Shown one piece after another: positions 18 to 16,361 of a DNA stretch of 16,751 bases (position 1 is the stretch's first letter; every line of letters starts with the position of its first letter). The stretch spans positions 1 to 16,751 of the forward strand of contig CABVBV010000030.1 of the NCBI GenBank assembly GCA_902496595.1, read 5' to 3'. A program made the position numbers and the translations under genes. Below the pieces are notes generated by a model. That model made no database searches. It was not told the origin of the DNA and saw only the letters and a list, made by a program, of their open reading frames with translations. The DNA comes from an uncultured Eubacteriales bacterium (GTDB taxonomy: Bacteria > Bacillota > Clostridia > Oscillospirales > Oscillospiraceae).

Positions 18-2303
18 ATGGACTTTACCGAACGTTCGACAAGGGTATACCGCACGAAGCAGCTCTATACGAAGGAGGAGCTGGCGCAGCGCGAATCGCT
101 CTGCGTACACGAGCAGCCGGCCTTCTGCGCCGCGGCCTGCCCGCTGCGGCTGGACGCGAGGGAGCTTTTGGGCTGCGCGGCTAAGGGCGAGCTCGCCCAG
201 GCCCGGGCCATGCTCGAGCGGGCGACGCCCTTTCCCGGCATCCTGGCCTCCGGCTGCGAGGCCCCATGCAAGGCCGCGTGCAGACTCAATGAGGTGCCGG
301 ACGCTCAGGCCGTGGACATCCCGGCCATAGAGCGGGCCGCCATGCGGCACGGGGCGGCGCGGACGGGAAAGGGTCTTCTGAAGTTCAAGAAGAAAAAGAC
401 CGCCGCCGTTTTCGGCGCGGAGCTCTTCACGCTCGTCGTCGCGGGGGAACTGGCGGGCAAGAGCTACCCCACCAGGTTCTGCGTCGCCGAGGGCTCGGCC
501 GAGGAACTCATCGACAAGTGCGCGCCGTTTTTGTCCCCTGAGGACAGGGCCGCGGAGATAAAGAGGCTCGAGGCCATGGATTTGGAGCTCAAATTCGGCT
601 CGGAGCTCACGCCGGAGCTCGTGCGCGGCGCGGGCGCGGACATAGTCTGCGTCTCGCAGGAGGTGCTGGCGCTGCTCGACGGGCCAAAAGAGCCCGACCC
701 CGTCACGCTCTGGTGTGCGGAGCTGGGCGTGCTGGCCCGCTCCGGTGAGGAAGGAGGCGTCATCGGCGCATTTTACGACGCGAGAAGGGCGGGAGTCTCG
801 GCGGACAGGCTGGCGCAGGGTATGTCTCCGGACAACGCCCGCGGCGAGGAGGGCCCCGTCGAGAGCCGGCTGTACACGGATCTCTCCGAGGCGAGGCCGG
901 GCGGGAGCCTGCCCGAGGGCGAGGGCTACACGGCGGAGCAGGCGAGGGCCGAGGCCGGGCGCTGCATACAGTGCCGCTGTGAGGAATGCGTCAAGGGCTG
1001 CGCCTGGCTGCGGCACTACGACAAGTTCCCGAGGATAATGACGCGGGAGATATACAACAACGTCGGCATAATAATGGGCGACCACATGATGAACGGGGCC
1101 ATCAACTCCTGCGCCCTCTGCGGCCAGTGTACCGTCACCTGCCCGAACGGCTACGACATGGCCGAGATCTGCCTCTCTGCGCGGCGGAACATGGTCGCCA
1201 CGGGCAAGATGAGCCTGGCCGTACACGAATTTGCGCTCTACGACCAGATCTTCTCGAACACCGAGGCGTTTTTGTGCCGGCCCGAGCCGGGATACGAGAC
1301 CTGCAGATATGTGTTTTTCCCGGGCTGCCAGGCCGGGGCCGTAGCGCCGGAGTCGGTCTGGCGGGCCTACGCCGATCTGAGGTCGAGGCTAAACGGCGGC
1401 GTGGGCATACTGCTCGGCTGCTGCGGCATCATCTCGCACTGGGCCGGAAGGGAGGGGCTCTTTGACGAGACCTGCGCACTGCTGCGCTCGGAGCTTGCAA
1501 AGCTGGGAGATCCCGTGATAATAACCGCCTGCCCGAGCTGCATGAAGACGCTCAAGGAGTTGGGCCTGGGCGAGTGCAGGGGCATCTGGGACGTGCTGCT
1601 CGAGCTCGGCCTGCCGGAGAGCGCGCCGAGGGCCGTAGGAGAGGCTGTCGTACACGATGCCTGCGGCGCGAGGGGCGACGCGGACACGCAGGAGGCGATA
1701 CGGAAGCTCGTGTCGGAGCTCGGCTGCGAGGTGAAGGAGCCGGAGTACACTGGCGACAGCGCCCCCTGCTGCGGCTACGGCGGGCTCGCGGGCTATGCAA
1801 AGCCCGAGGTCGCCGCGGACTACACGAAGGCCGCGCTCGAGGGCTGCGAGGGCTTGCAGCTCACCTACTGCATGGGCTGCCGCGACCGCTACGCACGTCA
1901 GGGCGCGGAGAGCGCGCACCTGCTGGAGCTCGTCTACGCATCCCCCGCCGGGTGCCCGCCGGGAATATCGGAAAAACGCAAGAACCGTTTGAGCCTGAAG
2001 CAGCGGCTGCTGCGCGACATCTGGAAGGAGGACACACACATGGCCCCGAGAGGCTACAAGATCGAGTACACCCCCGAGGTGAAGAAGCTCATGGAGCAGC
2101 GCATGGTGCTCGAGAGCGACATTGAGACCGTCATGCAGGCCTACCGCGAGGGAGGCGAGGCCATCTACGAGGCCGACACGGGCCTGCGCATCTCGCGCTA
2201 CCGGCTCGGCAACGTCACCTTCTGGGTGAAGTTCACGGAGGACGCCGAGGGCTATGTCATCCACAGCGCGTACAGCCACAGGATGACCGTCGAGACGAGG
2301 TAG
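18..2303 (+). CDS. Multidomain Fe-S oxidoreductase: GltD-type N-terminal Fe-S helical domain, degenerate dinucleotide-binding remnant, ferredoxin-like dicluster segment, two CCG (HdrB/GlcF/LutA-type) Cys-rich domains, and a ~85-aa C-terminal domain of unknown function
   Basis: 761-aa ORF. GAAGGAGGG RBS at 5-13 precedes ATG 18, and a TGA at 1-3 may end an upstream gene. The N-terminus (LCVHEQPAFCAAACPLRLD...GCEAPCKAAC) matches the Cys pattern of the glutamate synthase small subunit / DPD domain II Fe-S region. CIQCRCEECVKGC and CALCGQCTVTCP are ferredoxin-like cluster motifs. FFPGCQ..GCCG..CPSC and HDACG..PCCGYGG..YCMGC are two CCG-type domains. Confidence 0.8.
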   Translation: MDFTERSTRVYRTKQLYTKEELAQRESLCVHEQPAFCAAACPLRLDARELLGCAAKGELAQARAMLERATPFPGILASGCEAPCKAACRLNEVPDAQAVDIPAIERAAMRHGAARTGKGLLKFKKKKTAAVFGAELFTLVVAGELAGKSYPTRFCVAEGSAEELIDKCAPFLSPEDRAAEIKRLEAMDLELKFGSELTPELVRGAGADIVCVSQEVLALLDGPKEPDPVTLWCAELGVLARSGEEGGVIGAFYDARRAGVSADRLAQGMSPDNARGEEGPVESRLYTDLSEARPGGSLPEGEGYTAEQARAEAGRCIQCRCEECVKGCAWLRHYDKFPRIMTREIYNNVGIIMGDHMMNGAINSCALCGQCTVTCPNGYDMAEICLSARRNMVATGKMSLAVHEFALYDQIFSNTEAFLCRPEPGYETCRYVFFPGCQAGAVAPESVWRAYADLRSRLNGGVGILLGCCGIISHWAGREGLFDETCALLRSELAKLGDPVIITACPSCMKTLKELGLGECRGIWDVLLELGLPESAPRAVGEAVVHDACGARGDADTQEAIRKLVSELGCEVKEPEYTGDSAPCCGYGGLAGYAKPEVAADYTKAALEGCEGLQLTYCMGCRDRYARQGAESAHLLELVYASPAGCPPGISEKRKNRLSLKQRLLRDIWKEDTHMAPRGYKIEYTPEVKKLMEQRMVLESDIETVMQAYREGGEAIYEADTGLRISRYRLGNVTFWVKFTEDAEGYVIHSAYSHRMTVETR

Positions 2304-2307
2304 GGCC

Positions 2308-2529
2308 ATGGCCGAGGAAAAGAGCTATTACGTCGTGGACCCCGGCGGGCGCTACCGCTGCCTCAAGTGCGATGTGCCGCTCGTCAAAGGCAACGCGGTG
2401 TTCGGATACCTCGACAACGCCTTCCCGGTGGAGCTGCCGGTCTGCCCGAAATGCGGCTTTGTCTTCGTGCCCGAGGAGCTGGCCATGGGCAAGGTGCTCT
2501 CGGTGGAGAAGGTGCTGGAGGACAAGTAG
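2308..2529 (+). CDS. Small (73 aa) four-cysteine zinc-ribbon / rubredoxin-like protein, function unknown
   Basis: ATG 2308 lies 4 nt after the upstream TAG, with GAGGTAG just before it. Two CxxC pairs are present (CLKC and CPKC, about 25 residues apart). Its stop overlaps the GTG start of the next gene (TAGTG at 2527-2531). Confidence 0.65.
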   Translation: MAEEKSYYVVDPGGRYRCLKCDVPLVKGNAVFGYLDNAFPVELPVCPKCGFVFVPEELAMGKVLSVEKVLEDK

Positions 2530-3056
2530 TGGAGCGGCATCCGGGCGGCGCTGAGGCGACGCTGAGGCTCATAGAACTCGCGGGCATCGCCCCGCCCTGC
2601 CGCATGATAGACCTCGGCGCGGGCGCGGGCGAGGCCGTGAGGCTGCTGCGCTCCCTCGGTTTCGAGGCCCTTGGCATAGACCTCGCGCCCGGCGCGGACG
2701 TGGAGAATGGCGACATACTCGACCCGCCCTTTGACGGGGGCGGCTTCGACGCGGCGCTCTGCCAGTGCAGCTTCTACCTGACGGGAGACCCGGAGCGGGC
2801 GCTCATCGAGGCTGCGCGGCTGCTAAGGCCCGGCGGATGTCTGCTCTTTTCGGATATCTGCCCCGGAGGCGAGAGCCGGCTGCGCCGGGCGGCGGGGGAG
2901 GCCGGGCTCCGGGCGGAGACGGTCGAGGACATCACGGACGAGTGGAAACGGTATTACATCGAGGCCCTCTGGAGCGGCGAGGCAGAGCACCCGCCGGAGG
3001 GGGCCAAAAACTGCCGCTATCTCTGCGCGGTGTTCAGAAAGGGAAACACGGCTTGA
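2529..3056 (+). CDS. Class I SAM-dependent methyltransferase (~175 aa)
   Basis: Motif I is MIDLGAGAGEAV, with a downstream acidic loop (GIDLAP), DILDPPF, and post-motif LRPGGCLLFSD. I prefer the GTG start at 2529, which overlaps the upstream stop. The ATG at 2367 in the track would lie entirely inside the preceding gene. Confidence 0.75.
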   Translation: MERHPGGAEATLRLIELAGIAPPCRMIDLGAGAGEAVRLLRSLGFEALGIDLAPGADVENGDILDPPFDGGGFDAALCQCSFYLTGDPERALIEAARLLRPGGCLLFSDICPGGESRLRRAAGEAGLRAETVEDITDEWKRYYIEALWSGEAEHPPEGAKNCRYLCAVFRKGNTA

Positions 3057-3163: not shown

Positions 3164-3571
3164 ATGGATGCATTCGACAGGATGCTTGAGCTCTCGAGGA
3201 AGGGCTATTTCTGCGCACAGATACTCATGCAGCTGGCGCTGGACGCCGAGGGGAAGGACTGCCCGGAGCTTATCCGCGCCATGTCCGGGCTGAACGCGGG
3301 CATCGGCTTCTCCGGCGGCCCCTGCGGGGCGCTGACCGGCGGGGCCTGCTTCCTCGGCTATTTCTCCGAGGGCATGGAGCCGCAGGAGCGCGACGCCATG
3401 CTGAAGGAGTTCCGCGACTGGTTTAAGGAGCGCACGGCGGAGTACGGCGGCGAGAGCTGCGACAGCATCCTCGCGGGCGACCCTGCGAACCAGCTGCGCC
3501 GCTGCCCGCCGCTTATACAGGAGGTCTACGGAAAATGCGCCGAGCTGCTCGCGGAGAGGGGCCTTGCCTGA
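3164..3571 (+). CDS. C_GCAxxG_C_C family protein (putative redox-active Cys protein)
   Basis: 135 aa. GGAGGAG RBS precedes ATG 3164. Diagnostic pattern: YFCAQ ... GGPCGALTGGAC ... GESCDSIL ... RRCP. Confidence 0.8.
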   Translation: MDAFDRMLELSRKGYFCAQILMQLALDAEGKDCPELIRAMSGLNAGIGFSGGPCGALTGGACFLGYFSEGMEPQERDAMLKEFRDWFKERTAEYGGESCDSILAGDPANQLRRCPPLIQEVYGKCAELLAERGLA

Positions 3572-4854
3572 TGTACGAGGTCTTTGCGAGGACAAGGAGC
3601 GTCTGCCCCGTCTGTCTCAGGACGATAGACGCCGAAAAAGCCGTGGCCGGGGACGGGTTTGTCCATCTCATCAAGACCTGCCCCGAGCACGGTTTTTTTG
3701 ATACGCTCATCTGGGAAGACGGAGCGGAGGGATACCTCGCCTGGGGCGGGGCCTGCTCCGGAGGCGAGCCGGACGACGCCTGCCCGCGAAGCTGCGGCCT
3801 GTGCGGAAACCACGAGAGCGGGGGCTGCTGCGTGCTGCTCGAGCTGACGCGCCGCTGCAACCTGCGCTGCCCGGTCTGCTTCGCTTCCGCCGGAGGGGAG
3901 GGCGACCTCGGCCTCGACGAGATAGCGGAGCTCTACGATATGCTCATGTCCCGCGGCGGGCCGTTCAACATCCAGCTCTCGGGCGGAGAGCCGACCATGC
4001 GGGACGATCTGCCCGAGGTCGTGAGGCTCGGCCGCGAGCGGGGCTTTACCTTCTTCCAGCTGAACACCAACGGCCTGCGCCTCGCATCTGAGGACGGCTA
4101 CGCGGAAAAGCTGCGCGGGGCCGGGGTCTCCTGCGCCTTTTTGCAGTTCGACGGGCTGCGGCCGGGGACGTATGAGGCGCTCCGGGGCCGCGACATCCTC
4201 GCGGAGAAGCTCCGGGCCATCGACGCCTGCGAGCGGGCGGGCCTGCCCGTAGTGCTCGTGCCGACCCTCGCGCCGGTTGTGAACGGGGACGAGATCGGCG
4301 ACATCCTGCGCTTCGCCCTGGGACGGGGGAAAATAGTGAGAGGCGTACACTTCCAGCCCGTGAGCTACTTCGGCCGCTGCGAGCTGCCGGAGCCGGGGCG
4401 CAGGCTGACCATCCCGCAGGTCATACGGGATATCGAGGCGCAGAGCGGGGGACTCATGAAGTTCGCGGATTTCGGCGGAGGCGGGGCCGAGAGCCCCTGG
4501 TGCAGCTTCCACGCGAGCTACCGCAAGCTCCCGGACGGGAGGCTCAAGGCCCTGCCGAGGCGCGAGAGCGCCTGCTGCTGCAAAAAAAGCTCCGAGGCCC
4601 GGGACTTCGTCGCCGACCGCTGGGGCCTCAGCTCGGCCCAGCGTGAGGACGAGGACGGCTTCGACCGCTTCATGCGCGAGGCCGTGGAGAACACCTTCAC
4701 CGTCTCCGGCATGGCCTTCATGGACGCGGACAGCCTCGAGCTGGACAGGCTCCGGCGCTGCTACATAAGCGAGGCCGACGCAGAGCGCGGCATGGTGCCC
4801 TTCTGCGCCTACAACCTCACGGCCCGCGACGGGAGGGCGCTGTACAGGAAATGA
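3571..4854 (+). CDS. Radical SAM enzyme with N-terminal zinc ribbon and Cys-containing C-terminal extension (~427 aa)
   Basis: CNLRCPVC is the CX3CX2C radical SAM motif, followed by the glycine-rich SAM motif LSGGEPT. The N-terminus has CPVC...TCPEHG. The C-terminus has WCSFHAS, ACCCKK and MVPFCAYN. I chose the ATG 3571 start because it overlaps the upstream stop (TGATG). The track start at 3535 would overlap the previous gene by 37 nt. Confidence 0.8.
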   Translation: MYEVFARTRSVCPVCLRTIDAEKAVAGDGFVHLIKTCPEHGFFDTLIWEDGAEGYLAWGGACSGGEPDDACPRSCGLCGNHESGGCCVLLELTRRCNLRCPVCFASAGGEGDLGLDEIAELYDMLMSRGGPFNIQLSGGEPTMRDDLPEVVRLGRERGFTFFQLNTNGLRLASEDGYAEKLRGAGVSCAFLQFDGLRPGTYEALRGRDILAEKLRAIDACERAGLPVVLVPTLAPVVNGDEIGDILRFALGRGKIVRGVHFQPVSYFGRCELPEPGRRLTIPQVIRDIEAQSGGLMKFADFGGGGAESPWCSFHASYRKLPDGRLKALPRRESACCCKKSSEARDFVADRWGLSSAQREDEDGFDRFMREAVENTFTVSGMAFMDADSLELDRLRRCYISEADAERGMVPFCAYNLTARDGRALYRK

Positions 4855-6071
4855 GAAAGACGAGACTTGAGGACTGGATATGCGAAGTCGAGGGCCTTCC
4901 AGGCCTCGACCGCGAGACGCTGGACAGGATACAGCTTCGGCGAATAAACGAGCTGCTGGCGCGGGAAAAGACGCGAAACGGCTTCTACAAGGGCCTGCCG
5001 GAGCGGCTGGGCAGCCTCGCGGAGCTCAGACGCCTGCCCTTCACGACGCCGGAGCAGCTCGCAGAGAACGCGCCGGGCCTGCTGCTCGGCTCGCAGGCCG
5101 AGGTGAGCCGCATCATCTCCGGAGCTACGAGCGGCACGACGGGGCCGTCGAAGCGGGTATTCTACACCGAGCGGGATATTGAACACACGGTCGGCTTCTT
5201 CGCCGCGGGCATCTCGGAGCTGGTGTCGGAGGGCGAGGCGGTCTGCGTCGCCATGCCCTTCTCCGGGCCGGACGGGCTGGGAGAGCTCATCTGCCGGGCC
5301 GTGGAGCGCCTGGGCGCAAGGCCGGTGAGGATGGGCGTGGGCAGGAGCCTCGGCGAGCAGGCGGAAATGCTCGGGGCCGAGAGGCCGGAGGCCTACATCG
5401 GTATGCCGGTGCCGCTGCTGGGGCTCATCCGCTGGATGGGTTCTCCGGGGAGCCTGCGCCGGGCGCTGGTCTCGGGCGACGCCTGCCCCGAGGGCGTTAT
5501 GCTGGAGCTGGAGCGGCTGCTCGGGACGCGGCTCTTCCCGCACTACGGCTCGCGGGAGATGTGCCTCGGCGGGGCGGTGACTTGTGCGGCGCACGAGGGT
5601 ATGCACCTGCGGGAGAACCACGTCGTTGCGGAGATAGTCTCGCCGGAAGGAGAGGCGCTGCCCGACGGGGAGTACGGAGAGCTGGTCGTCACCACCGCCG
5701 ATATGCAGGCCATGCCGCTCATACGCTACAAAACCGGCGACTACACGCGATTCCTGCCCGGCCCCTGCCCCTGCGGCGGTGCCACGAGAAGGCTGGACAG
5801 GCTCAGCCGAATGGACTCCGGGGCGGGCATCGAGAGCCTGGACGACGCTCTCTTCAGGCTTCCCGGCCTCATCGACTATGAGGCGGCCCTCTCCGGCGGC
5901 CTGCTCAGGCTGAGGGCGGTCGGCCGGACGGAGCGGGAGCTCCTGGAGAGCGAGGTACGCAGGCTCATGCCAGGACTTGAGGTCAGGCTCGAGCTGAACG
6001 CGGCAGCGGCGGAGTTCAGAGGCTTTTTCCGCGGCAAGCGCAGGCTGCTTGACTGCCTGGATCGATTCTGA
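4851..6071 (+). CDS. Adenylate-forming enzyme of the phenylacetate-CoA ligase (PaaK) / coenzyme F390 synthetase type
   Basis: 406 aa. ATGA start/stop overlap with the radical SAM gene. Motifs: P-loop-like TSGTTGPSKRV, YGSREM, RYKTGDY, and CPCGGATRRLDRLSRMD, which is typical of the PaaK C-terminal domain. Confidence 0.75.
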   Translation: MRKTRLEDWICEVEGLPGLDRETLDRIQLRRINELLAREKTRNGFYKGLPERLGSLAELRRLPFTTPEQLAENAPGLLLGSQAEVSRIISGATSGTTGPSKRVFYTERDIEHTVGFFAAGISELVSEGEAVCVAMPFSGPDGLGELICRAVERLGARPVRMGVGRSLGEQAEMLGAERPEAYIGMPVPLLGLIRWMGSPGSLRRALVSGDACPEGVMLELERLLGTRLFPHYGSREMCLGGAVTCAAHEGMHLRENHVVAEIVSPEGEALPDGEYGELVVTTADMQAMPLIRYKTGDYTRFLPGPCPCGGATRRLDRLSRMDSGAGIESLDDALFRLPGLIDYEAALSGGLLRLRAVGRTERELLESEVRRLMPGLEVRLELNAAAAEFRGFFRGKRRLLDCLDRF

Positions 6072-6099
6072 ATTGGAATCGATACGCGGACAAAACGAA

Positions 6100-6128
6100 T
6101 TGCTCCCTCACAGCGGCGTATCTATACT
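6100..6128 (+). promoter_or_regulatory. Candidate sigma-70-type internal promoter (TTGCTC-17 nt-TATACT) upstream of the UbiD gene
   Basis: Hexamers at 6100-6105 and 6123-6128 with 17-nt spacing, inside the 94-nt gap between the ligase stop and the UbiD start. Motif match only. Confidence 0.35.
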
Positions 6129-6165
6129 GGTAAGTGTAGAATTACGGTCGGGAGGGGGCATTTTT

Positions 6166-7659
6166 GTGGATATCCATCGTTTTGAGAACAGAGTCAGGGA
6201 TCTGCGCTCGGCCCTGGACTATTTGAGGAGCCTGGACGGGCAGCTGGTCGAAACGGATGTGGAGACAGATCCGGAGGCGGAGCTCTCCGGAGTATACAGG
6301 AGGGTCGGGGCCGGCGGCACGGTGATGCGTCCGACAAGGACTAACGGGCCTGCGATGCTCTTTCGGAATTTGAAGGGTTTTGACGAGGCCTCCGCTGTCA
6401 TAGGCGTGCTCGCCTCGAGGGAGAGGGTCGCGGCCCTGCTCGGATGCAGGAGCGCAGACCTGGGCAGGCTGCTTTGCGACTGCGTGGCGTCCCCGGTGGA
6501 GCCGGTCGTGAAGGAGGGGCCCGCGCCCTGCCGCGAGGTAGTACACCTTGCTTCGGAGCCGGACTTCGACCTCAGAGCGCTCCTGCCCGCTCCGACGAAC
6601 ACGCCTCTGGACGCAGGGCCGTACATAACGCTCGGTATGTGCTACGCCACTCATCCGGATACCGGACGTTCGGATGTGACGATACACAGACTCTGCATCC
6701 AGGGCAGGGACGAGCTCTCCATCTTCCTGCAGCCGGGCAGCCGGCACATCGGAGCCATGGCGGACAGGGCCGAGGAACTTGGGCGCCCTCTGCCGATATC
6801 CGTCTCCATCGGCGTCGACCCTGCGATAGAGATCTGCGCCTGCTTCGAGCCGCCCACTACCCCGCTGGGATATGACGAGCTTTCGATAGCCGGGGCGCTC
6901 AGGGGAGAACCTGTTGAGCTCTGCCGCTGCCTCACCGTGGACGAGAGGGCCATTGCGAACGCCGAGTTCGTAATCGAGGGAGAGATAATCCCCGGGGTGA
7001 GGGTGCAGGAGGATCAGAACTCGGGGACGGGCATCGCCATGCCCGAATTTCCGGGCTACAACGGGGTCGCGAGTTCCGAGTGCAGGCTCCTCAAGGTCAA
7101 GGCGCTGACGCACAGGAAAAAGCCCATACTCCAGACCTGCATAGGCCCGAGCGAGGAGCACGTCAACATGGCGGGCATCCCGACCGAGGCGAGCATCCTG
7201 GGCCTGCTCGAGCGGGCCATGCCGGGAAAGGTCAAAAACGTTTACGCCCACCGCTCCGGAGGAGGGAAGTATCTGGCCGTGCTCCAGATTTGCAAAGCGG
7301 TTCCCACCGACGAGGGCCGCCAGAGACAGGCGGCGCTTCTGGCCTTCTCGGCCTTCCCAGAGCTCAAGCAGGTCATACTGGTGGACGAGGACGTGGACGC
7401 ATTCGACACCGACGATGTGCTCTGGGCCATGACCACGAGGTATCAGGGAAACCTGGACACGGTGTTCATACCCGGAGTCCGCTGCCATCCGCTCGACCCG
7501 AGCGCCGGGCCGGAGTACGACCCGAGGATACCGGGCCGAGGCGTATCCTGCAAGACCATCTTCGACTGCACCGTGCCCTTCGCTCAGAAAGAGCGCTTCC
7601 GCAGGGCGGGCTTCCTCGAAGTAGACCCGGGACGCTGGCTGCCGGGCTGGGAGGACTGA
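6166..7659 (+). CDS. UbiD-family (prFMN-dependent) decarboxylase/carboxylase, divergent subfamily
   Basis: About 497 aa from GTG 6166, with GGAGGGGG RBS at 6151-6158. Family-typical segments include GPYITLGM, SDVTIHRL, PLPISVSIGVDP, GYDELSIAGALRGEPVEL and AEFVIEGEI. The track start at 6049 overlaps the ligase and has no RBS. Confidence 0.8.
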   Translation: MDIHRFENRVRDLRSALDYLRSLDGQLVETDVETDPEAELSGVYRRVGAGGTVMRPTRTNGPAMLFRNLKGFDEASAVIGVLASRERVAALLGCRSADLGRLLCDCVASPVEPVVKEGPAPCREVVHLASEPDFDLRALLPAPTNTPLDAGPYITLGMCYATHPDTGRSDVTIHRLCIQGRDELSIFLQPGSRHIGAMADRAEELGRPLPISVSIGVDPAIEICACFEPPTTPLGYDELSIAGALRGEPVELCRCLTVDERAIANAEFVIEGEIIPGVRVQEDQNSGTGIAMPEFPGYNGVASSECRLLKVKALTHRKKPILQTCIGPSEEHVNMAGIPTEASILGLLERAMPGKVKNVYAHRSGGGKYLAVLQICKAVPTDEGRQRQAALLAFSAFPELKQVILVDEDVDAFDTDDVLWAMTTRYQGNLDTVFIPGVRCHPLDPSAGPEYDPRIPGRGVSCKTIFDCTVPFAQKERFRRAGFLEVDPGRWLPGWED

Positions 7660-7660
7660 G

Positions 7661-8233
7661 ATGGAGGCTCGGCTCACGGTGGGCATTAGCGGGGCCTCGG
7701 GGGCCTCGTTGGCGCTCAGCTTTTTGAAACTGGCTCGAAAAAGCGGCGTTCCCACCGAGCTCATCGTCACGAGCGGAGGAGAGAGGACGCTCAGGGACGA
7801 GCTGGGCCTGGGGCCGGAGGCGCTCTCCGGCCTCGTGGACGAGGTGTACGACTGCAGGGATATCGGCGCGGCCCCGGCTTCGGGCAGCCGCCCGTCCCTG
7901 GGCATGGCCGTTGTCCCGTGCAGCATGAAGACCCTCGCCGGCATCGCCTCGGGTTACAGCGAGAACCTCTTGCTCAGAGCCGCGGATGTAGCGCTCAAGG
8001 AGAGGCGCAGGTTGGTTCTTGCGGCGAGGGAGACGCCGCTCTCGGCCATCCATCTCAGGAATATGCTGGAGCTCAGCCAGGCCGGGGCGGTCGTCTTTCC
8101 CCCCGTGCCGCTCTGGTATGCCGGGCCGAAGACGATGGAGCAGATGGAGCTTCAGCTCTCCGCGAGGCTGCTGAGCCTCTTCGGGATCGTCACCCCGGAG
8201 CTCCACGTCTGGACGGAGAGCGGACAGGAGTAG
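7661..8233 (+). CDS. ubiX: UbiX-family flavin prenyltransferase (prFMN synthase)
   Basis: 190 aa, starting 1 nt after the UbiD stop. Motifs: GISGASGASLA, VPCSMKTLAGIASGYSENLLLRAADVALKERRRLVL, RETPLS. All are typical of UbiX/Pad1. Confidence 0.85.
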   Translation: MEARLTVGISGASGASLALSFLKLARKSGVPTELIVTSGGERTLRDELGLGPEALSGLVDEVYDCRDIGAAPASGSRPSLGMAVVPCSMKTLAGIASGYSENLLLRAADVALKERRRLVLAARETPLSAIHLRNMLELSQAGAVVFPPVPLWYAGPKTMEQMELQLSARLLSLFGIVTPELHVWTESGQE

Positions 8234-8300
8234 CCCGCCTCCAGGCCCGCGGAGTTTCGCGGCCGCCGCGCCGTACCATTTGCCTTCATAAATAAGCTGT

Positions 8301-8324
8301 GCCGGAGCGCCTGAGCGCTCCGGC
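8301..8324. terminator. GC-rich hairpin between convergent ubiX (+) and trxA (-); candidate bidirectional terminator
   Basis: GCCGGAGCGC-CTGA-GCGCTCCGGC is a perfect 10-bp stem with a 4-nt loop. Flanks are modestly T-rich on both strands. Confidence 0.5.
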
Positions 8325-8355
8325 ATTCTGCGATTTGAAGGGATGGATGGGAAAA

Positions 8356-8664
8356 TCAGTTTAAGAGGGAGAGGATACTGGATTTGGGTCTTGCACCGGT
8401 GGCCCGATTCGTGACCTTGCCGTCCTTGAGAACCACCAGGGTGGGGATACTGGTTATGTTGAAGGCCGAGGCCAGCTCGGGCTCTTCGTCAACGTTGACT
8501 TTGCCGACGAGCAGGTCGCCGCGTTCGGAGGCGATCTCGTCGACAACGGGCGACACCATACGGCAGGGGCCGCACCAGGAGGCCCAGAAGTCCAACAGCA
8601 CCGGTTTGGAACTGCCGGTAACGAGTCCCGCGTAATTCGATGAGGTTATCTTTACAGCTGACAT
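8356..8664 (-). CDS. trxA: Thioredoxin
   Basis: 102 aa from MSAVKITS, with GGGAGGAA RBS upstream. Canonical WCGPC active site and thioredoxin fold sequence ([11 protein letters not shown]...[10 protein letters not shown]). The upstream 15 codons in the track contain the RBS, so they were trimmed. Confidence 0.9.
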
Positions 8665-8730
8665 TTTAAATTCCTCCCGTGTTCTTTCTTTGTCTGCATG
8701 ATAGCACACGGGATACGGGCGAACCGTAAC

Positions 8731-9612
8731 TTAGTCACATTTCCTCCAGAGCAGCCTGTTGCCCTCGACCAGCGTCCCGACCAGGCCAGCGTCGAGCAGG
8801 TAGGCCAGGATGGATTTCACGGTGCTGCCCACCAGAACATATTGCTCCATGGTCAGCTGCAGGCCGTAACTGTCGAAGGCCAGCTTCAGGATGTCCTCGA
8901 AACCCTTCGGCTCTCCGCAGAGGCCAAGGACGAAGCCGCAGAGGCCCTCGACGTGCCGGAGGTTCAGCTCGGCGAGCGGCCCTATGTCCTCCGCCGCCTC
9001 GGCGTGCGCCGGGATATAGAGCTTTGCGCCCAGTCCGGGCAGCTTCCTGAGCGTTTCCATATAGGCCGCGACGTCGTAGATAAAGGGGAAACCGTACTTC
9101 TCCAGGGTCGCCGCGCTCGAGAGGCAGTCCGCGATGTAGGCCGTGCCGTCCGGAGTCATATATCCGGCCATGTCGAAGTAGTGCCCAGGCAGAGGGATGA
9201 GCTCTATCTCTTCGGGAAAGCCCCCGGACGAAATGAGCTCCGCCGGAGCGGGCTGGGCCATCAGGAACTTGTGCCTGAGCGGTTTCGGAGGGAAGCCGCC
9301 GTAGAGGAAGGCGGATTCCAGCACAGGGTTCCTTGTGAACGCCGCCTCAATATCCGGAGCGAATATCCGGCAGCCGGTCTGCTTCTGCAGGTACTGACAG
9401 CCTCCGACATGGTCTGCGTTCGAGTGCGTGACGAGTATGCCCCGGAGCTTCCAGGAGTTTCTGTCGAGGATCTGCCTGACCTTCCGGCCGGCGTCCTTGT
9501 CGTTGCCGCTGTCGATGAGCCAGACTTCCGAGTCCGAGGCCAGCCAGAGCCCGATTTTTGCCGGACAGTCGATATAGTAACTCCGCTCTCCGGCCTGAAC
9601 AAGTTCAAACAT
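8731..9612 (-). CDS. MBL-fold metallo-hydrolase family protein with variant metal motif
   Basis: 293 aa. [12 protein letters not shown] corresponds to the HxHxDH motif with Asn replacing the second His. Downstream His/Asp positions (LPGHY, PAHAE) fit the MBL fold. Confidence 0.7.
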
Positions 9613-9635
9613 TCAAAGCCCCCCTTTTTTCAGCT

Positions 9636-9664
9636 AATTTATCACATTAAACCGCGAAACGCAA
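9636..9664 (-). promoter_or_regulatory. Candidate promoter for the MBL-trxA unit (TTGCGT-17 nt-TAAATT on the minus strand)
   Basis: By-eye hexamers with 17-nt spacing, about 25 nt upstream of the MBL start codon. Confidence 0.3.
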
Positions 9665-9684
9665 GCCCCGTCTCGCACCGGCGC

Positions 9685-9712
9685 TTTACAAATCGGTGTT
9701 GTATGTTAAAAT
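9685..9712 (+). promoter_or_regulatory. Candidate fhs promoter (TTTACA-16 nt-TAAAAT with TGn extended -10)
   Basis: TTTACA at 9685-9690 and TGTTAAAAT ending at 9712. It lies 30 nt upstream of the fhs ATG in an AT-rich divergent intergenic region. Confidence 0.5.
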
Positions 9713-9741
9713 ATAAGGGAATTTTGACTGTGAGGTGCCAC

Positions 9742-11403
9742 ATGACCGATATTGAGATCGCCCAGGCGGCAAAGCCGCTGCCCATAACAGAAGTCGCCGC
9801 AAGAGCCGGCATCGACGAGGGGTATATCGAGTGCTACGGCGGGAGCAAGGCGAAGATAGACCCCGCGCTGCTCGACGAACCGGGGGAAGAGGGAAAGCTC
9901 GTCCTGGTCACTGCGATAAACCCGACGCCTGCCGGGGAGGGCAAAACGACCACCACCGTCGGACTCGCGGACGCGCTGCGGAAGCTCGGGAAACGCTCGG
10001 TCGTGGCGCTCAGGGAGCCCTCGCTCGGCCCGGTCTTCGGTATAAAGGGCGGCGCGGCCGGGGGAGGCTATGCCCAGGTGATACCGATGGAGGACATCAA
10101 TCTGCACTTCACCGGCGATTTCCACGCCATAGGCGCGGCGAACAACCTGCTCGCCGCCATGCTGGACAACCACATCTATCAGGGCAACACGCTGAACATT
10201 GACCCGAGGCGCATAACCTGGAGACGCGCCGTCGACATGAACGACCGGCAGCTCAGGGCAATAACAGACGGGCTTGGCGGCAGGGTCAACGGGGTGCCCA
10301 GGGAGGACGGTTTCGACATAACCGTCGCGAGCGAGGTCATGGCCGTGCTCTGCCTCGCCTCTGGCATCCGGGATTTGAAGGAGCGGCTGTCGAGGATTGT
10401 GGTGGGCTACACCTACGACGAGAAGCCGGTGACGGCAGGGCAGCTCAAGGCCGCCGGAGCCATGGCGGCGCTCTTGAAGGATGCGATAAAGCCCAACCTG
10501 GTTCAGACGCTCGAGGGCACGCCGGCCTTTGTACACGGAGGGCCGTTCGCGAACATCGCCCACGGCTGCAACAGCGTGACCGCCACGAGGATGGCGCTCA
10601 GGCTGGGTGAGTACGCTGTAACGGAGGCGGGCTTCGGAGCGGATCTGGGCGCGGAGAAGTTCTTCGACATAAAGTGCCGTATGTCCGGGCTGAGACCCTC
10701 GGCGGTAGTCATAGTCGCGACGGTGAGAGCGCTCAAGCACCACGGCGGCGCGGCGAAGGACGAGCTGGGAGCTGAAGACCTCGCGGCGCTGGAGAGGGGC
10801 CTGCCCAACCTGCTCCGGCACGTCGACAATGTTAAGAACGTCTACGGCCTGCCCTGCGTCGTGGCGATAAACAGGTTCCCGACGGATACGGAGGCGGAGC
10901 TGGAGCTGGTCGGCCGCCGTTGCCGCGAGCTCGGAGTGAACGCGGCGCTCTCCGAGGTCTGGGCAAAGGGAGGCGACGGAGGGCTCGAACTGGCAAAGGA
11001 GGTCGTCAGGCTCTGCGGCGAGGAGAACTGCTTCCGCTTCGCCTATCCGGACGAGCTGGACATAAGGTCGAAGATAGAGGCGATAGCGAAGAAAGTGTAC
11101 CGGGCCTCCGCCGTGGCTTTCACCGGGCCCGCTGAGAAGGAGCTCGGGCAGCTCGAAGCCCTGGGCTTCGGCGGGCTGCCGGTATGCATGGCGAAGACGC
11201 AGTATTCGTTTTCCGACGACCCGGCCAAGAAGGGCGCGCCTGAGGGCTTCACCCTGACGGTCAGGAAACTGAAAGTCTCTGCCGGAGCGGGCTTCATCGT
11301 GGCTCTGACCGGAGACATCATGACCATGCCCGGCCTCCCGAGATCCCCGGCGGCAGAGCGCATAGACGTGGACGAGACCGGCCGCATCTCCGGCCTTTTC
11401 TGA
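9742..11403 (+). CDS. fhs: Formate-tetrahydrofolate ligase
   Basis: 553 aa from [15 protein letters not shown]. It carries the [16 protein letters not shown]-loop and is full-length FTHFS-like throughout. The track ORF (8698..) has a 348-codon upstream extension that is antisense to the MBL gene and is not credible. Confidence 0.92.
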
Positions 11404-11437
11404 CAGCGCGGCCGGAGCTCGGAGAGAAATACGAAAA

Positions 11438-11480
11438 AATACGCCCCGTTTCCTTGAACAGCTGGGAAACGGGGCGTATT
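11438..11480. terminator. Intrinsic terminator hairpin between convergent fhs (+) and the YhhN gene (-)
   Basis: Perfect 16-bp stem (AATACGCCCCGTTTCC / GGAAACGGGGCGTATT) with an 11-nt loop. The A-run on the + strand immediately 5' gives a U-tract for the minus-strand transcript. The U-tract on the + strand is weaker. Confidence 0.7.
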
Positions 11481-11509
11481 CGTGCGGCAGCCGGGCCGAC
11501 AGGCCCCGG

Positions 11510-12163
11510 TCAGCCGAGGCCGAAGCCAATGGCCAGCAGGGTTTGGGCTGAGATATAGGTCAGCATGACGGCGACGTCGGCGGCGTTGCTGTCACCATCC
11601 CTGAAAGTCTCAAAAGAGAGGATCCCGTCGGAGCAGAGGAAGAGGCAGGCTCCGGCGAGCAGCCAGCCCGCTCCGGGGGCCCCGGCCCTGAGCCCTATGA
11701 ACGAGGCGGAGCCCAGAGAGGCGAGCAGCAGCCCATAGAGCAGTCCCGGCAGTCTCAGAGGTTTGGGGATGCGCTTTCTCAGGACGAAAAAGATCACGAG
11801 CGCTACCGCCCCCGGCACCAGGGTCGCCGCTAAGGCGGTTATGAGTTTCGGCTGGGCCGCCGCTGCGAGCGCGCCGATATGCGCAACGTAGAGGACGTGT
11901 CCCAGCCCGAAAGCCGCCATGCCGAGGCCCAGGAAGACTTCCCTGTGTTTGTAGATCATGAATATGTCCCCGGCCCAGCCGCAGAGCATGGCGGCGAGGA
12001 CAACCGCCGAAGGTCTCGGCGCGATGCTCAGGTAGAGCAGGCAGATGAGCGGCATGAGCAGCAGCTTGGTGAAGTATCTCAGCTTCTGCCTGCCCAGACC
12101 GCAGGCGGCAAGGTGCGTGACGGAAGCCGCGGCTGTTGCGGCGGCGGTGAGCACTGTTACCAT
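11510..12163 (-). CDS. YhhN-family (lysoplasmalogenase/TMEM86-like) integral membrane protein
   Basis: 217 aa from MVTVLTAA, with GGGAGG RBS 5 nt upstream. It is polytopic and hydrophobic, with YhhN-like segments (FTKLLLMPLI, GWAGDIFM, FGLGHVLY, LFLCSDGIL). Confidence 0.65.
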   Translation of the reverse strand: MVTVLTAAATAAASVTHLAACGLGRQKLRYFTKLLLMPLICLLYLSIAPRPSAVVLAAMLCGWAGDIFMIYKHREVFLGLGMAAFGLGHVLYVAHIGALAAAAQPKLITALAATLVPGAVALVIFFVLRKRIPKPLRLPGLLYGLLLASLGSASFIGLRAGAPGAGWLLAGACLFLCSDGILSFETFRDGDSNAADVAVMLTYISAQTLLAIGFGLG

Positions 12164-12191
12164 ATGAACCTCCCGATATTTATCCGCCCCC

Positions 12192-12220
12192 ATAATAACC
12201 TATGCGCAGTTTCGTGTAAA
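12192..12220 (-). promoter_or_regulatory. Candidate promoter for the YhhN gene (TTTACA-17 nt-TATTAT on the minus strand)
   Basis: Hexamers at 12220-12215 and 12197-12192 (minus-strand orientation), in the 71-nt AT-rich gap after the long moeA stop. Confidence 0.45.
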
Positions 12221-12234
12221 GAAGTTATAATAAT

Positions 12235-14163
12235 TTAAGAATCCTTAAGAAATCCCGTCCTAATCCGTCCGGGAGAGCCCAGGGTATAGCCGCCGAGCCG
12301 TTCCAGCCGTTTTGCGAACTCTGCGGAGCGCAGAACCTCCAGGAGCCTTTGCACGGGCAGGCTGTCCCAGGCGGAATCCGGGATGAGCAGGTCGTACTGT
12401 TCGGTGCAGACTGGAAGGAAGTCCAGACCGTAGAGCCTGGCCGCCGACAGGATGCCCATGCCCGCGTCGGCGGAGCCTGAGGCTATCTGGGCCGCGACGG
12501 AGGTGTGCGTCAACTCCTCCCTGCCGTAGCCGTAGACCCTGCCGGAGTCCACAGAGTATATCCGGCAGAGGTAGTCGGCGAGGATACGGGTGCCCGAGCC
12601 CTTCTGCCTGTTCACATATCTCAGGCCGGGCCTCGCGATATCAGGGAAGCTCCCGATCTCCAGGGGGTTCCCCGGAGCGAGCATGAGCCCCTGCGTCCTG
12701 CATACGCATTCGACGAGCTTCACGCCTCCGTTCGGGAAGAAGCGCCTTACATGGCTCTCGTTGTAGCTGCCGTCCGCCTCGTCCAGCAGGTGTATGCCCG
12801 CCGCTGCGGCCTCGCCGCGCATGACCGCCATTATGCCGCCCATGGAACCGACGTGGCTCGAGACCATGCGCAGCGGAGGCTCGGAGCGCCGGAGCAGGTC
12901 TGCGACCTCGTCCAGCAGCGGGTCGTGGCTGCCTATTACTATAAGCCCTCCGGAGAGCTCGCTCAAAGGCCGGAGGAGCTTCACTTTCACCTCGGCTCCG
13001 GCCTCCAGGCCCTCGCTGCCCTGCGGGATCTCCAGCATCGCGTCGGCGCGCATGAAAGAGCTCACGACCCCGGCACCCCTGTCGAGCGGCGAGGCCACAA
13101 GGCCCTCGGGCCCCTCTCCCAGCCTCAGCCGGACATATTCCCTGTATTTGAGCCCGGATACCACGCCTCTGGCCAGCTTCGCCTTCGCCCAGTCCTCCTC
13201 CCGAGCCCCGCCGGACGCGCCGAAGCAGAGCTCCAGAACGGGCCTCAGGAGCTCTTCAAGGACTATTATGCCCGAGACGGGGTAGCCCGGGACGCCCAGG
13301 ACGGGCTTTTTCCCCGAGAGCCCCAGTATGGCCGGCTTGCCGGGTTTTATCGCGAGGCCGTGGTACATGACCTCTCCCACCGAACCAACGGCGGCGCAGC
13401 TCAGATCTTCCCTGCCGGCGGAGGAGCCCGCGTTCAGGATGACCGCGTCGCACTCTGACAGGGCGAGCCTCAGCGCGGCCTCTATGGCCCCGGCGTCGTC
13501 GCGCACTATGGGATAACGCCTCGGCTGTGCGCCCCAGTCCCGGAGCATGGCGGAGAAGATGGCGGAGTTGAACTCGATTATATCGCCCTCGCCCGGCGCT
13601 TCGCAGGGCTCGACCAGCTCGTCCCCGGTGGGGATGACGCCCACCACCGGCCTCCTGCACACCTCGCACTCGAGCACGCCGGCGGCCAGCATCGCGCCCA
13701 CGGCAGAGGGGCTTATCCTCGTATACGAGGGCAGCAGCATCTCGCCGGCGCAGATGTCCTCGCCTATCTGCCGCACGTGCTGCCAGGGCGCGGCCGCGGC
13801 CCGGAGCCTTATCCCGCCGTCCTCCAGCGGCTCTATGTCCTCGGCCATGACCACGGCGTCGCAGCCCTCCGGCAAGGGGTCGCCCGTGTCCACCGGGACG
13901 TAATCTCCCTTCCCCAGCGTCACGGGCGTCGTCTCCGTGGCGCCGAAGCTCAGGGAGGCATTCAGGGCCGCGCCGTCCATGGCGCAGGCGTGGTAGTGCG
14001 GGGCGCAGATCTTCGCGTACACTGCGCCGAAGCTCACCCTGCCCGCCGCGTCCGCTGTCCGGATGCGCTCGGGAACAGGGCCGAGGCCGTTTTCCCTGAG
14101 CCTCTTTATGTAGTTGCCTCTGGCCTCATCCAGAGGCGTGTTGGTCAGGTATGCAAAGCCCAT
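12235..14163 (-). CDS. moeA: Molybdopterin molybdotransferase MoeA paralog fused to a C-terminal periplasmic-binding-protein-like (molybdate/tungstate-binding-type) domain
   Basis: 642 aa from MGFAYLTN, starting 1 nt after the upstream moeA stop. MoeA motifs: AMDGAAL, DTGDPLPEGCDAVVM, IPTGDELV, NAGSSAGRED, IKPGKPAILG, GVPGYPVSG. The C-terminal ~230 aa (VIGSHDP...NRQKGSGTR...GSADAGMG) resembles a type 2 PBP fold. Confidence 0.85.
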   Translation of the reverse strand: MGFAYLTNTPLDEARGNYIKRLRENGLGPVPERIRTADAAGRVSFGAVYAKICAPHYHACAMDGAALNASLSFGATETTPVTLGKGDYVPVDTGDPLPEGCDAVVMAEDIEPLEDGGIRLRAAAAPWQHVRQIGEDICAGEMLLPSYTRISPSAVGAMLAAGVLECEVCRRPVVGVIPTGDELVEPCEAPGEGDIIEFNSAIFSAMLRDWGAQPRRYPIVRDDAGAIEAALRLALSECDAVILNAGSSAGREDLSCAAVGSVGEVMYHGLAIKPGKPAILGLSGKKPVLGVPGYPVSGIIVLEELLRPVLELCFGASGGAREEDWAKAKLARGVVSGLKYREYVRLRLGEGPEGLVASPLDRGAGVVSSFMRADAMLEIPQGSEGLEAGAEVKVKLLRPLSELSGGLIVIGSHDPLLDEVADLLRRSEPPLRMVSSHVGSMGGIMAVMRGEAAAAGIHLLDEADGSYNESHVRRFFPNGGVKLVECVCRTQGLMLAPGNPLEIGSFPDIARPGLRYVNRQKGSGTRILADYLCRIYSVDSGRVYGYGREELTHTSVAAQIASGSADAGMGILSAARLYGLDFLPVCTEQYDLLIPDSAWDSLPVQRLLEVLRSAEFAKRLERLGGYTLGSPGRIRTGFLKDS

Positions 14164-14164
14164 T

Positions 14165-15388: not shown

Positions 15389-15408
15389 CCTGTCTCCCCC
15401 TTTACACG

Positions 15409-15437
15409 AGTTTAAACCGATACCCCGGCTTTTGCAA
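15409..15437 (-). promoter_or_regulatory. Candidate promoter for the moeA-moeA operon (TTGCAA-17 nt-TAAACT on the minus strand)
   Basis: By-eye hexamers with 17-nt spacing. The -10 overlaps the 8-bp palindrome GTTTAAAC (15410-15417). The leader would be very short. Confidence 0.35.
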
Positions 15438-15445
15438 GTCCGCCC

Positions 15446-15474
15446 TTGCGCCTCGGGGCTGCAGAGGTTAAACT
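15446..15474 (+). promoter_or_regulatory. Candidate promoter for the ThiF/MoeB-like gene (TTGCGC-17 nt-TAAACT)
   Basis: By-eye hexamers with 17-nt spacing in the divergent intergenic region. Confidence 0.3.
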
Positions 15475-15497
15475 AAAGAGTGAGGAGGCGATTGCGC

Positions 15498-16127: not shown

Positions 16128-16137
16128 AAGTTCGCTC

Positions 16138-16166
16138 TTTACAGGGAGGCTAAAATCCGATATAGT
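16138..16166 (+). promoter_or_regulatory. Candidate promoter (TTTACA-17 nt-TATAGT) about 195 nt upstream of the lipoprotein gene
   Basis: Hexamers at 16138-16143 and 16161-16166 in the AT-rich gap after the ThiF-like stop. Confidence 0.35.
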
Positions 16167-16361
16167 ATAAGGGTGAATTGTGTTTTGTTTGACAAAATAT
16201 AAGAAACGGCGTGCGCGGCAAACAGTTTTTCAGCAGACTATTTATCCGCGCCGCTCTTGTCTCAAGAGAAATTGTTATTTCTTTGACACGGCTGTTGACG
16301 TCCCGTGCTGTCAGCGGGGCGAACAGATATAAAAAACCATCCATATTCAGGAGGTAGGAAA

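Follow-up and report, generated by a model that had tools for sequence, protein, structure and literature searches.

A cysteine-form TrsS radical SAM enzyme within a six-gene cassette of an uncultured Eubacteriales bacterium

The TrsS gene and its cassette

We analyzed a 16,751-nucleotide stretch of DNA from an uncultured Eubacteriales bacterium (GenBank assembly GCA_902496595.1, contig CABVBV010000030.1), which as a whole is called the window below. The subject is an open reading frame (ORF) on the forward strand, at positions 3571 to 4854, that an earlier note made from the letters alone had described as a radical S-adenosylmethionine (SAM) enzyme. The ORF translates to 427 amino acids followed by a stop, with no internal stop codons, and it almost certainly encodes the cysteine form of TrsS, a radical SAM enzyme with the fold of the archaeal tetraether lipid synthase (Tes). 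Within a tightly packed cassette of six translationally coupled genes, listed here, TrsS occupies the fifth place.

18 to 2303, forward strand: iron-sulfur (Fe-S) oxidoreductase, dicluster binding with a CCG domain (NF045663, "diclust_near_Sec"; 763 bits versus a cut-off of 530; Pfam Fer4_20, Fer4_17/8, and CCG)
2308 to 2529, forward strand: 73-residue zinc-ribbon redox protein of the DVU_1557 family (NF045645, 91.6 bits versus a cut-off of 60; DUF7479, E = 1.8e-25)
2529 to 3056, forward strand: class I SAM methyltransferase, DVU_1556-like (NF045667, 103.8 bits, under the cut-off of 155; Pfam Methyltransf_11/25)
3164 to 3571, forward strand: C-GCAxxG-C-C protein of the DVU_1555 family, small, rich in cysteine, and putatively redox active (NF045669, 142 bits versus a cut-off of 103; PF09719, E = 2e-21)
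3571 to 4854, forward strand: TrsS, Tes-fold radical SAM enzyme, cysteine form (NF045646, 517.3 bits; Foldseek template modeling [TM] score, 0.82)
4851 to 6071, forward strand: DVU_1553 family AMP-dependent PaaK-like ligase (NF045666, 332 bits versus a cut-off of 300)

The start codon of TrsS, at 3571, overlaps the upstream stop codon by one base, the A of TGATG, and is preceded by a Shine-Dalgarno-like stretch, GGAGAGGGG. At the other end, the ligase gene, which runs from 4851, overlaps the TrsS stop by 4 nucleotides. A 439-residue form of TrsS beginning at ATG 3535 was dropped, since ATG 3571 is favored as the likely start by its overlap with the upstream stop, by the Shine-Dalgarno-like sequence ahead of it, and by the N termini of homologues. 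The methyltransferase likewise appears to begin at GTG 2529 and not at GTG 2367, and in a close relative (locus L151) a 174-residue methyltransferase gene begins at the stop of the DUF7479 gene. Matches over the cut-offs of NF045663, NF045645, NF045669, and NF045666 were all found in the window, the oxidoreductase fitting NF045663 from end to end, and NF045667 was the best match of the methyltransferase.

The cysteine motifs that the earlier note had picked out are all in the translation: CPVC at residues 12 to 15, followed by exactly 20 residues and then TCPEHG at 36 to 41; CNLRCPVC at 96 to 103; WCSFHAS at 310 to 316; ACCCKK at 334 to 339; and MVPFCAYN at 408 to 415. A second CX3CX2C-plus-His motif, CPRSCGLCGNH at residues 71 to 81, had been overlooked. 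A Pfam scan of the protein returned only Radical_SAM (residues 91 to 249) and Zn_ribbon_HMPTM (residues 6 to 49) and detected no SPASM or twitch domain, which agrees with what the earlier note had said of such a block. The sites discussed below are the following.

3604 to 3690, forward strand: rubredoxin-like or zinc-ribbon site C12-X2-C15-X21-C37-X2-H40 (invariant in 115 homologues; aligns to the Tes iron site)
3781 to 3828, forward strand: putative N-terminal auxiliary cluster motif C71-X3-C75-X2-C78-X2-H81, plus the TrsS-specific C86 (invariant; alignment to Tes)
3856 to 3879, forward strand: radical SAM cluster motif C96-X3-C100-X2-C103 (invariant in 115 homologues)
4498 to 4581, forward strand: TrsS-specific cysteine-rich insert, from WCSFH (C311) through the CCC at 335 to 337 (conservation in 115 homologues)
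4711 to 4815, forward strand: putative C-terminal auxiliary cluster region with M381, C397, and PFCAYN (C412) (alignment to Tes and conservation)

Family placement and comparison with Tes

The protein matched the NCBIfam model NF045646, "radical SAM (seleno)protein TrsS," at 517.3 bits (cut-off, 490; E = 2.6e-155), and the alignment ran end to end, with residues 7 to 426 on model positions 2 to 441 of 441. The over-cut-off match was repeated in a profile search of the whole genome. The score lies near the low end of the family, many members of which reach 620 to 718 bits. The Tes model, NF045702, gave only 292.3 bits against a cut-off of 450, its best stretch covering model positions 2 to 318 of 486. 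MoaA (73.8 bits versus 284) and PqqE (54.3 bits versus 381) scored far lower in the NCBIfam scan, and all SPASM families stayed at or below 60 bits and were confined to core residues 87 to 270; membership among MoaA, PqqE, or the SPASM maturases was rejected on these scores. In a maximum-likelihood tree of 118 rows, for which a quick method was used and one partial Tes sequence served as the outgroup, the window TrsS grouped with the sequences from loci L038 and L073 (SH-aLRT, 100) inside a 115-row TrsS clade (SH-aLRT, 95). That clade leaves out Tes and also both TrsS-like paralogues encoded on a second contig of the genome, C22, which is taken up below. The placement by hidden Markov model (HMM) and tree that the earlier note had suggested therefore gave TrsS, with no MoaA, PqqE, or SPASM maturase model over its cut-off.

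The window gene is thus an ordinary cysteine-form member of a named, catalogued family and introduces nothing new in kind. In a table of a review on prokaryotic selenoproteins (PMC13188914), the family appears as "Radical SAM selenoprotein TrsS, NF045646" and is credited to Haft and Tolstoy 2025, mSystems 10:e0141724. Like the family at large, the window copy matches at full length over the curated cut-off, keeps the same partners (NF045645, NF045663, NF045666, NF045667, and NF045669), and shows the same linkage to the aldehyde oxidoreductase (AOR) NF045668 and to NF045665 and NF045664. What sets it apart is that it is the cysteine form in a genome in which selenocysteine-decoding genes were not found, that its methyltransferase partner scores under its own cut-off, and that an unrelated UbiD/UbiX pair comes after the locus.

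Conservation was counted over 115 full-length homologues from many phyla. Residues C12, C15, C37, H40, C71, C75, C78, H81, C86, C96, C100, C103, C311, C397, and C412 were invariant in all of them, so that the N- and C-terminal cysteine motifs, whose conservation among orthologues the earlier note had made a point of, proved fixed (C12, C15, C37, C311, C397, and C412, each 115/115). M381 was present in 112. The three consecutive cysteines at 335 to 337, which the same note had stressed, behaved differently from one another: C337 was kept in 111 of the 115 and C336 in 102, but C335 in only 47. The triplet is there in the window protein, but because C335 is so often missing, the conserved unit is a CC pair.

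By sequence, the only close solved structure was that of Tes from Methanocaldococcus jannaschii (PDB 7TOL; E = 7.8e-70), which aligned in two stretches, TrsS residues 7 to 302 and 375 to 419. An AlphaFold2 model of TrsS, built on 74 sequences, had a mean predicted local distance difference test (pLDDT) score of 87.8 and a predicted TM score (pTM) of 0.90. In Foldseek searches the model matched 7TOM/7TOL over nearly its whole length with a TM score of 0.82 and 32% identity; the next-best structures, SkfB and MoaA, reached only 0.43 to 0.45. Judged by alignment and by the predicted model, the architecture of TrsS is of the Tes type, as the earlier note had proposed in likening it to MJ0619 and Tes, but its profile scores (292 bits versus 450 for Tes) place it outside the Tes family proper and within the separately named TrsS family.

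The published Tes structure offers a guide to the likely metal sites. In Tes, an iron site is formed by C9X2C12X20C33X2H36, the N-terminal auxiliary cluster, [4Fe-4S]N, is held by C73, C77, and C80 plus a histidine, and the C-terminal cluster, [4Fe-4S]C, has Met439 as a labile ligand together with cysteines of the RCC and PFC motifs (PMC9433317). The ligands of the iron site align to C12, C15, C37, and H40 of TrsS, and those of [4Fe-4S]N align to C71, C75, C78, and H81. At the C-terminal cluster, Met439 falls on M381, C397 aligns with the cysteine pair of RCC, and C412 aligns with the cysteine of PFC. By this alignment, TrsS is predicted to have four metal sites. Two are of the Cys3His type, one rubredoxin-like and the other holding an N-terminal [4Fe-4S] cluster; the third is the [4Fe-4S] cluster that binds SAM, and the fourth is a C-terminal [4Fe-4S] cluster with a labile methionine. 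The two proteins have in common the overall fold, the rubredoxin-like CX2C...CX2H, the N-terminal CX3CX2C plus His, the radical SAM cluster, and, for the C-terminal cluster, the labile Met and the cysteines of RC.. and PFC.YN.

Some cysteines of TrsS set it apart from Tes. C86 and C311 have no Tes counterpart in the alignment to 7TOL. The segment that separates the two aligned stretches is 72 residues long in TrsS (303 to 374) and about 123 in Tes. These segments show no sequence match to each other, and the shorter insert of TrsS, which carries C311 and the CC pair, takes the place of the Tes residues. The C-terminal domain of Tes lines a second lipid pocket (PMC9433317), and it is in that domain that the insert region of TrsS falls. 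The pLDDT values of residues 333 to 338, the CCC loop, were under 50, a sign that this loop may be mobile or depend on a metal. On the strength of these alignments, C86, C311, and C336/C337 are the conserved cysteines specific to TrsS. The context differs as well, TrsS being found in a soluble redox and ligase cassette beside an AOR and not among genes of lipid synthesis.

Genomic company and the selenocysteine form

Gene neighborhoods were compared across 80 related loci from GTDB species genomes, 48 of which had at least 7.5 kb of upstream and 4 kb of downstream sequence. Loci of at least seven phyla show the cassette order: Bacillota, Chloroflexota, Acidobacteriota, Thermodesulfobacteriota, Nitrospirota, Spirochaetota, and Pseudomonadota. 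In Desulfovibrio vulgaris Hildenborough, the counterparts of TrsS and the ligase are DVU_1554 and DVU_1553, and those of the cassette as a whole run from DVU_1553 to about DVU_1558. A relative of the oxidoreductase lies upstream of TrsS in 60 of the 80 loci, the DUF7479 gene was found by tblastn in 71, the C-GCAxxG-C-C gene is present in at least 54, and in 67 the ligase comes immediately after TrsS. Over the 48 fully flanked loci, the counts were 45 for DUF7479, 42 for the ligase, 41 for the oxidoreductase, and 36 for the AOR, the PaaK-like ligase being the most constant neighbor of TrsS after the small DUF7479 gene. Clustering of the flanking ORFs brought out a recurrent 914-residue MOP-type molybdopterin AOR (NF045668; 1573 bits for the representative), a MocA-like nucleoside triphosphate (NTP) transferase with an HD domain (NF045665), and an XdhC-family "aldehyde oxidoreductase maturation factor" (NF045664). 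Further recurrent neighbors were a histidine phosphatase, a cysteine desulfurase (14/80 loci), and MoaB/MoeA-like and ModC-like genes.

The association with the AOR also held at the level of whole genomes. In an evenly drawn sample of 401 Bacillota genomes, profile searched for both proteins and including related genomes that are not independent of one another, TrsS scored over its cut-off in 28, and 27 of these also hold the MOP-type AOR. The AOR was itself over its cut-off in 25 of the carriers and was cut by a contig end in 2, one of them the genome of the window; the remaining TrsS-positive genome, G349, has only a 744-bit AOR relative, under the cut-off. Conversely, the AOR was found in 34 of the 401 genomes, counting 3 contig-end cuts, and all but 3 fragmentary ones of these had TrsS at 450 bits or more. 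The contig of the window starts only 17 bases ahead of the cassette. Elsewhere in the same genome, the N-terminal half of an AOR (model positions 1 to 468, 810.7 bits) occupies positions 889 to 2286 of contig C248 and runs off the contig end; C248 also carries the start of the NTP transferase, the remainder of which lies on contig C43 together with the XdhC-like gene. The AOR-cassette locus of this genome is thus complete but split across contigs by the assembly. In a relative with a 91%-identical TrsS on a 309-kb contig, the AOR, three small ORFs, and an SLH protein are followed by the six cassette genes. Here, as in most genomes, the cassette belongs to a locus of a MOP-type AOR and cofactor-insertion genes. 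The tie to molybdenum cofactor (Moco) genes that the earlier note had drawn is therefore borne out by gene neighborhood and co-occurrence, but not through homology to a pterin enzyme.

The genome also encodes a second cassette, at 8173 to 16429 on the minus strand of contig C22 (locus L138). Its TrsS-2 scored 519 bits, over the NF045646 cut-off, and a further TrsS-like paralogue scored 362 bits; both branched outside the 115-sequence TrsS clade (SH-aLRT, 95), on long branches of a quick tree. Their partners are a lipoamide-dehydrogenase-like flavoprotein, a DVU_1553-family ligase, a Sir2 gene that adjoins TrsS-2, a CobW-type GTPase, and a DVU_1556-like methyltransferase, and no AOR was found on this 20.7-kb contig. 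In L151, the second cassette lies about 8 kb downstream of the first and is convergent with it. Two loci of this second type from other genomes (L167, 393 to 14023; L168, 6345 to 13982) contain DUF7479, a methyltransferase, a flavoprotein disulfide reductase, a tandem pair of Tes-fold radical SAM genes, and a ligase of the AMP-binding kind. In L167 these are joined by a BcrAD activase and four HGD-D subunits that resemble 2-hydroxyacyl-CoA dehydratase, and in L168 by a C-GCAxxG-C-C gene; neither locus has an AOR within 10 kb. The type-2 cassettes therefore share DUF7479, a class I methyltransferase, zinc-ribbon Tes-fold enzymes, and a DVU_1553-family or AMP-binding ligase with the window cassette. 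They differ in having two tandem or near-tandem radical SAM paralogues, in a lipoamide-dehydrogenase-like flavoprotein that replaces the dicluster/CCG protein, in such extras as Sir2, a CobW GTPase, or BcrAD plus HGD-D, and in the absence of a nearby AOR. The second cassette in the genome of the window, with its two deep-branching TrsS-like paralogues and no AOR on its contig, is what is new in this analysis.

The earlier note had also suggested that relatives of the enzyme can be selenoproteins while observing that this copy needs no in-frame TGA. Both statements are correct: selenoproteins in the family are indicated by the NCBIfam name and by PMC13188914, in which a table lists the family and WP_327020591.1 is named as a selenocysteine-containing TrsS, and the window TrsS reads through without an internal stop. 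In the genome of the window, which is 86% complete, no selA and no selB over its cut-off were found, and so the cysteine form is to be expected. An HMM search that read through stop codons was run on the 401 Bacillota genomes, on 401 genomes of the phylum of genome G401, and on 376 of its order. No selenocysteine TrsS turned up among about 190 matches (28, 40, and 43 genome matches over the cut-off plus the 80 GTDB loci, many of them common to several samples). No in-frame TGA was seen in the TrsS matches, the single "1 TGA" flag being the terminal stop, and the TrsS genes of the 80 GTDB loci have no in-frame stop. A metagenome scan for PF-U-AYNLT returned seven matches, all random. Selenocysteine forms of TrsS are rare in the samples searched. 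Structural considerations suggest C311, C336/C337, and C86 as candidate positions for selenocysteine, since they are conserved, are absent from Tes, and are not needed for the Tes-type clusters.

C-terminal TrsS fragments were also sought as possible traces of selenocysteine forms, and many of those found begin at Met320. The ones followed up came from long-read contigs with frameshifts (L140, L141), from a deletion (L153), from calls at contig edges (L154, L155), and from a decayed cassette (L142 to L144). The decayed cassette, found in Logan with the same arrangement in 24 contigs, consists of a 773-residue AOR/CCG fusion, DUF7479, a TrsS remnant of only its final 142 residues, and a shortened ligase. 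In a genome of the order of G401, a 637-bit TrsS match (G1302, contig C520, 5206 to 6534) contains two in-frame TAG codons, which could reflect a pseudogene, an assembly error, or pyrrolysine decoding.

Possible reactions and the other genes of the window

To our knowledge, no enzyme family other than that of Tes, of which TrsS is the bacterial branch, is known to couple a pair of unactivated sp3 carbons by way of an iron-sulfur cluster intermediate. In light of this relationship and of the gene context, we tentatively favor, though at somewhat less than even confidence, a role in which TrsS performs Tes-like radical chemistry on a non-lipid acyl substrate activated by the ligase, followed by methylation and with redox support. 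The ligase would activate a carboxylic acid to an acyl-adenylate or coenzyme A (CoA) thioester; in the MOP-linked type, this acid would be of the kind that the AOR makes or consumes. TrsS would then cleave SAM to the 5'-deoxyadenosyl radical and take a hydrogen from an unactivated carbon of the non-lipid substrate. As in Tes, the substrate radical might be captured on the C-terminal cluster, or on the adjacent C311 and CC thiols, with formation of a C-S bond (C-Se in selenocysteine forms) or a C-C bond. The methyltransferase would presumably finish the product, and the Fe-S/CCG, zinc-ribbon, and C-GCAxxG-C-C proteins would supply or recycle reducing equivalents. An acyl substrate is favored by the constancy of the ligase and by the AOR-free type-2 cassettes, which keep the ligase, one of them together with BcrAD and HGD-D of the 2-hydroxyacyl-CoA dehydratase family.

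Several points weigh against this proposal. In the papers that could be searched for the DVU_1551-1559 tags and the cassette, no functional study of the cassette genes was found. The AlphaFold model shows no metal sites, the ligand assignments coming from alignment to Tes only, and the window methyltransferase falls under the NF045667 cut-off (103.8 versus 155 bits). No pyridine-nucleotide or FAD domain was detected by Pfam in the window oxidoreductase (18 to 2303). Homologues such as that of L141 have Pyr_redox_2 and NAD_binding_8; the position of the GxGxxG motif reads FGAELF in the window protein, which may mean a degenerate nucleotide site in this lineage. It is also conceivable that the ligase adenylates something besides a free acid. 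Finally, the near-perfect co-occurrence with the AOR and the XdhC/MocA-type genes fits a role in maturation equally well.

It is possible, if doubtful, that the TrsS module, made up of the zinc-ribbon protein, the methyltransferase, the Tes-fold radical SAM enzyme, the PaaK-like ligase, and either a flavoprotein or an Fe-S reductase, is a pathway in its own right. Working on a small molecule activated as an acyl compound, it would form a C-C or C-S(Se) bond by Tes-like, cluster-assisted chemistry and lead to an undescribed metabolite or cofactor. The AOR would then be one of several paired enzymes, and the C22 cassette a distinct variant. We consider it unlikely that the cassette consists of maturation factors for the MOP-type AOR, which would modify or load the molybdopterin cytosine dinucleotide, its S or Se ligand, or the apoprotein. 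The co-occurrence in 27 of 28 genomes is what such factors would show, as are the company of a MocA-like NTP transferase/HD protein, an XdhC-family protein, cysteine desulfurase (14/80), and MoeA/MoaB-like and ModC-like genes, the two MoeA genes within the window, and the selenoproteins among TrsS family members. However, MocA and XdhC genes accompany any xanthine-oxidase-family operon and thus say nothing specific about TrsS, and we know of no part played by a PaaK-like ligase or a class I methyltransferase in Moco maturation. The TrsS-positive genome G349 lacks an AOR over the cut-off, and the type-2 cassettes keep DUF7479, the methyltransferase, a TrsS-like enzyme, and the ligase with no AOR within 10 kb or, for the C22 cassette, on its contig. 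The enzymatic core of the cassette can thus exist without the AOR, which weakens a purely maturational role.

We think it quite improbable that TrsS modifies one of the small cassette proteins, DUF7479 or C-GCAxxG-C-C, by introducing a cross-link or a thio or seleno group; the ligase would in that case adenylate the protein itself or some group tethered to it. Both of these cysteine-rich partners are constant (DUF7479, 71/80; C-GCAxxG-C-C, at least 54/80), the C-GCAxxG-C-C family includes selenoproteins, and a Sir2 gene, encoding a protein deacylase, adjoins TrsS-2, while a 692-residue Sir2-TrsS fusion protein, P0269, occurs elsewhere. Against this stands the absence of a precursor-peptide-like hypervariable gene and of a SPASM or RiPP recognition domain (RiPPs being peptides that are made on the ribosome and modified after translation). 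Sir2 enzymes also regulate acyl-CoA synthetases by deacylation, which would account for the Sir2 link without a protein substrate for TrsS.

A bacterial Tes orthologue that joins lipid tails into membrane-spanning lipids is very hard to reconcile with the data, even though Tes is the closest characterized relative by sequence and fold and Lloyd et al. mention bacterial Tes homologues without assigning them a role (PMC9433317): the Tes model reaches only 292 of 450 bits and covers only positions 2 to 318 of 486, about 123 Tes residues are unmatched and a 72-residue cysteine-rich insert stands in their place, the 115 sequences of TrsS group in a single clade that excludes Tes, and the genomic ties of TrsS are to a soluble cassette of redox proteins, ligase, and methyltransferase and to an AOR rather than to lipid genes. 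Equally remote is the cobalamin-independent C-methylation of a pterin-like substrate, which the earlier note had put forward by analogy with MJ0619. The Pfam N-terminal domain is still named after "HMPTM," JGI annotations still label fragments "7,8-dihydro-6-hydroxymethylpterin dimethyltransferase," and the cassette is linked to a pterin-cofactor enzyme. However, the cassette already has a separate class I methyltransferase, and the analogy is itself void. Lloyd et al. (2022) found the mj0619 product to be GDGT-MAS/Tes, with a hydrophobic lipid tunnel in its structure, and, being unable to corroborate the founding pterin-methylase activity, called that assignment incorrect (PMC9433317). The pterin methylase and the tetraether lipid synthase that the note had named as clade-mates are thus one protein, and the inference of pterin C-methylation falls with the assignment.

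TrsS is widespread in anaerobes, including gut Clostridia, and travels with the much-studied Desulfovibrio-type AOR. An account of its reaction would make sense of a conserved cassette of six to nine genes and perhaps of the selenocysteine in some members. The value of the window gene is that of a clean cysteine-form example, in a genome in which both cassette types can be compared side by side.

The remaining genes of the window lie downstream of the cassette, beginning with the following pair.

6049 to 8233: UbiD-like gene and UbiX flavin prenyltransferase, directly after the ligase (UbiD-like gene: VdcC model, 432 bits, under the cut-off of 650)

The pair was considered for cassette membership and rejected, as it occurs in 0 of the 80 related loci and is absent from the relative with the 91%-identical TrsS; its pairing with the cassette is specific to the genome of the window. 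The true UbiD start probably lies about 45 codons past the listed TTG. A thioredoxin gene, a gene for a metallo-beta-lactamase-fold protein, a formate-tetrahydrofolate ligase gene, YhhN, and two MoeA genes are likewise unrelated to the cassette. The 901-codon ORF of the formate-tetrahydrofolate ligase, within 8356 to 11403, has a spurious N-terminal extension of 348 codons, the match beginning at codon 349 (about position 9742), with a promoter-like site at 9685 to 9712 ahead of it. On the opposite strand beneath this extension are the thioredoxin gene (8356 to 8709) and the gene for the metallo-beta-lactamase-fold protein (8731 to 9612). The two MoeA-type genes are adjacent on the minus strand, at 12235 to 15388, and overlap by 56 bases; they echo the general molybdenum-cofactor company of the cassette. 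The downstream MoeA (661 residues) is fused to a PBP-like domain, PF12727, which presumably binds molybdate or tungstate.

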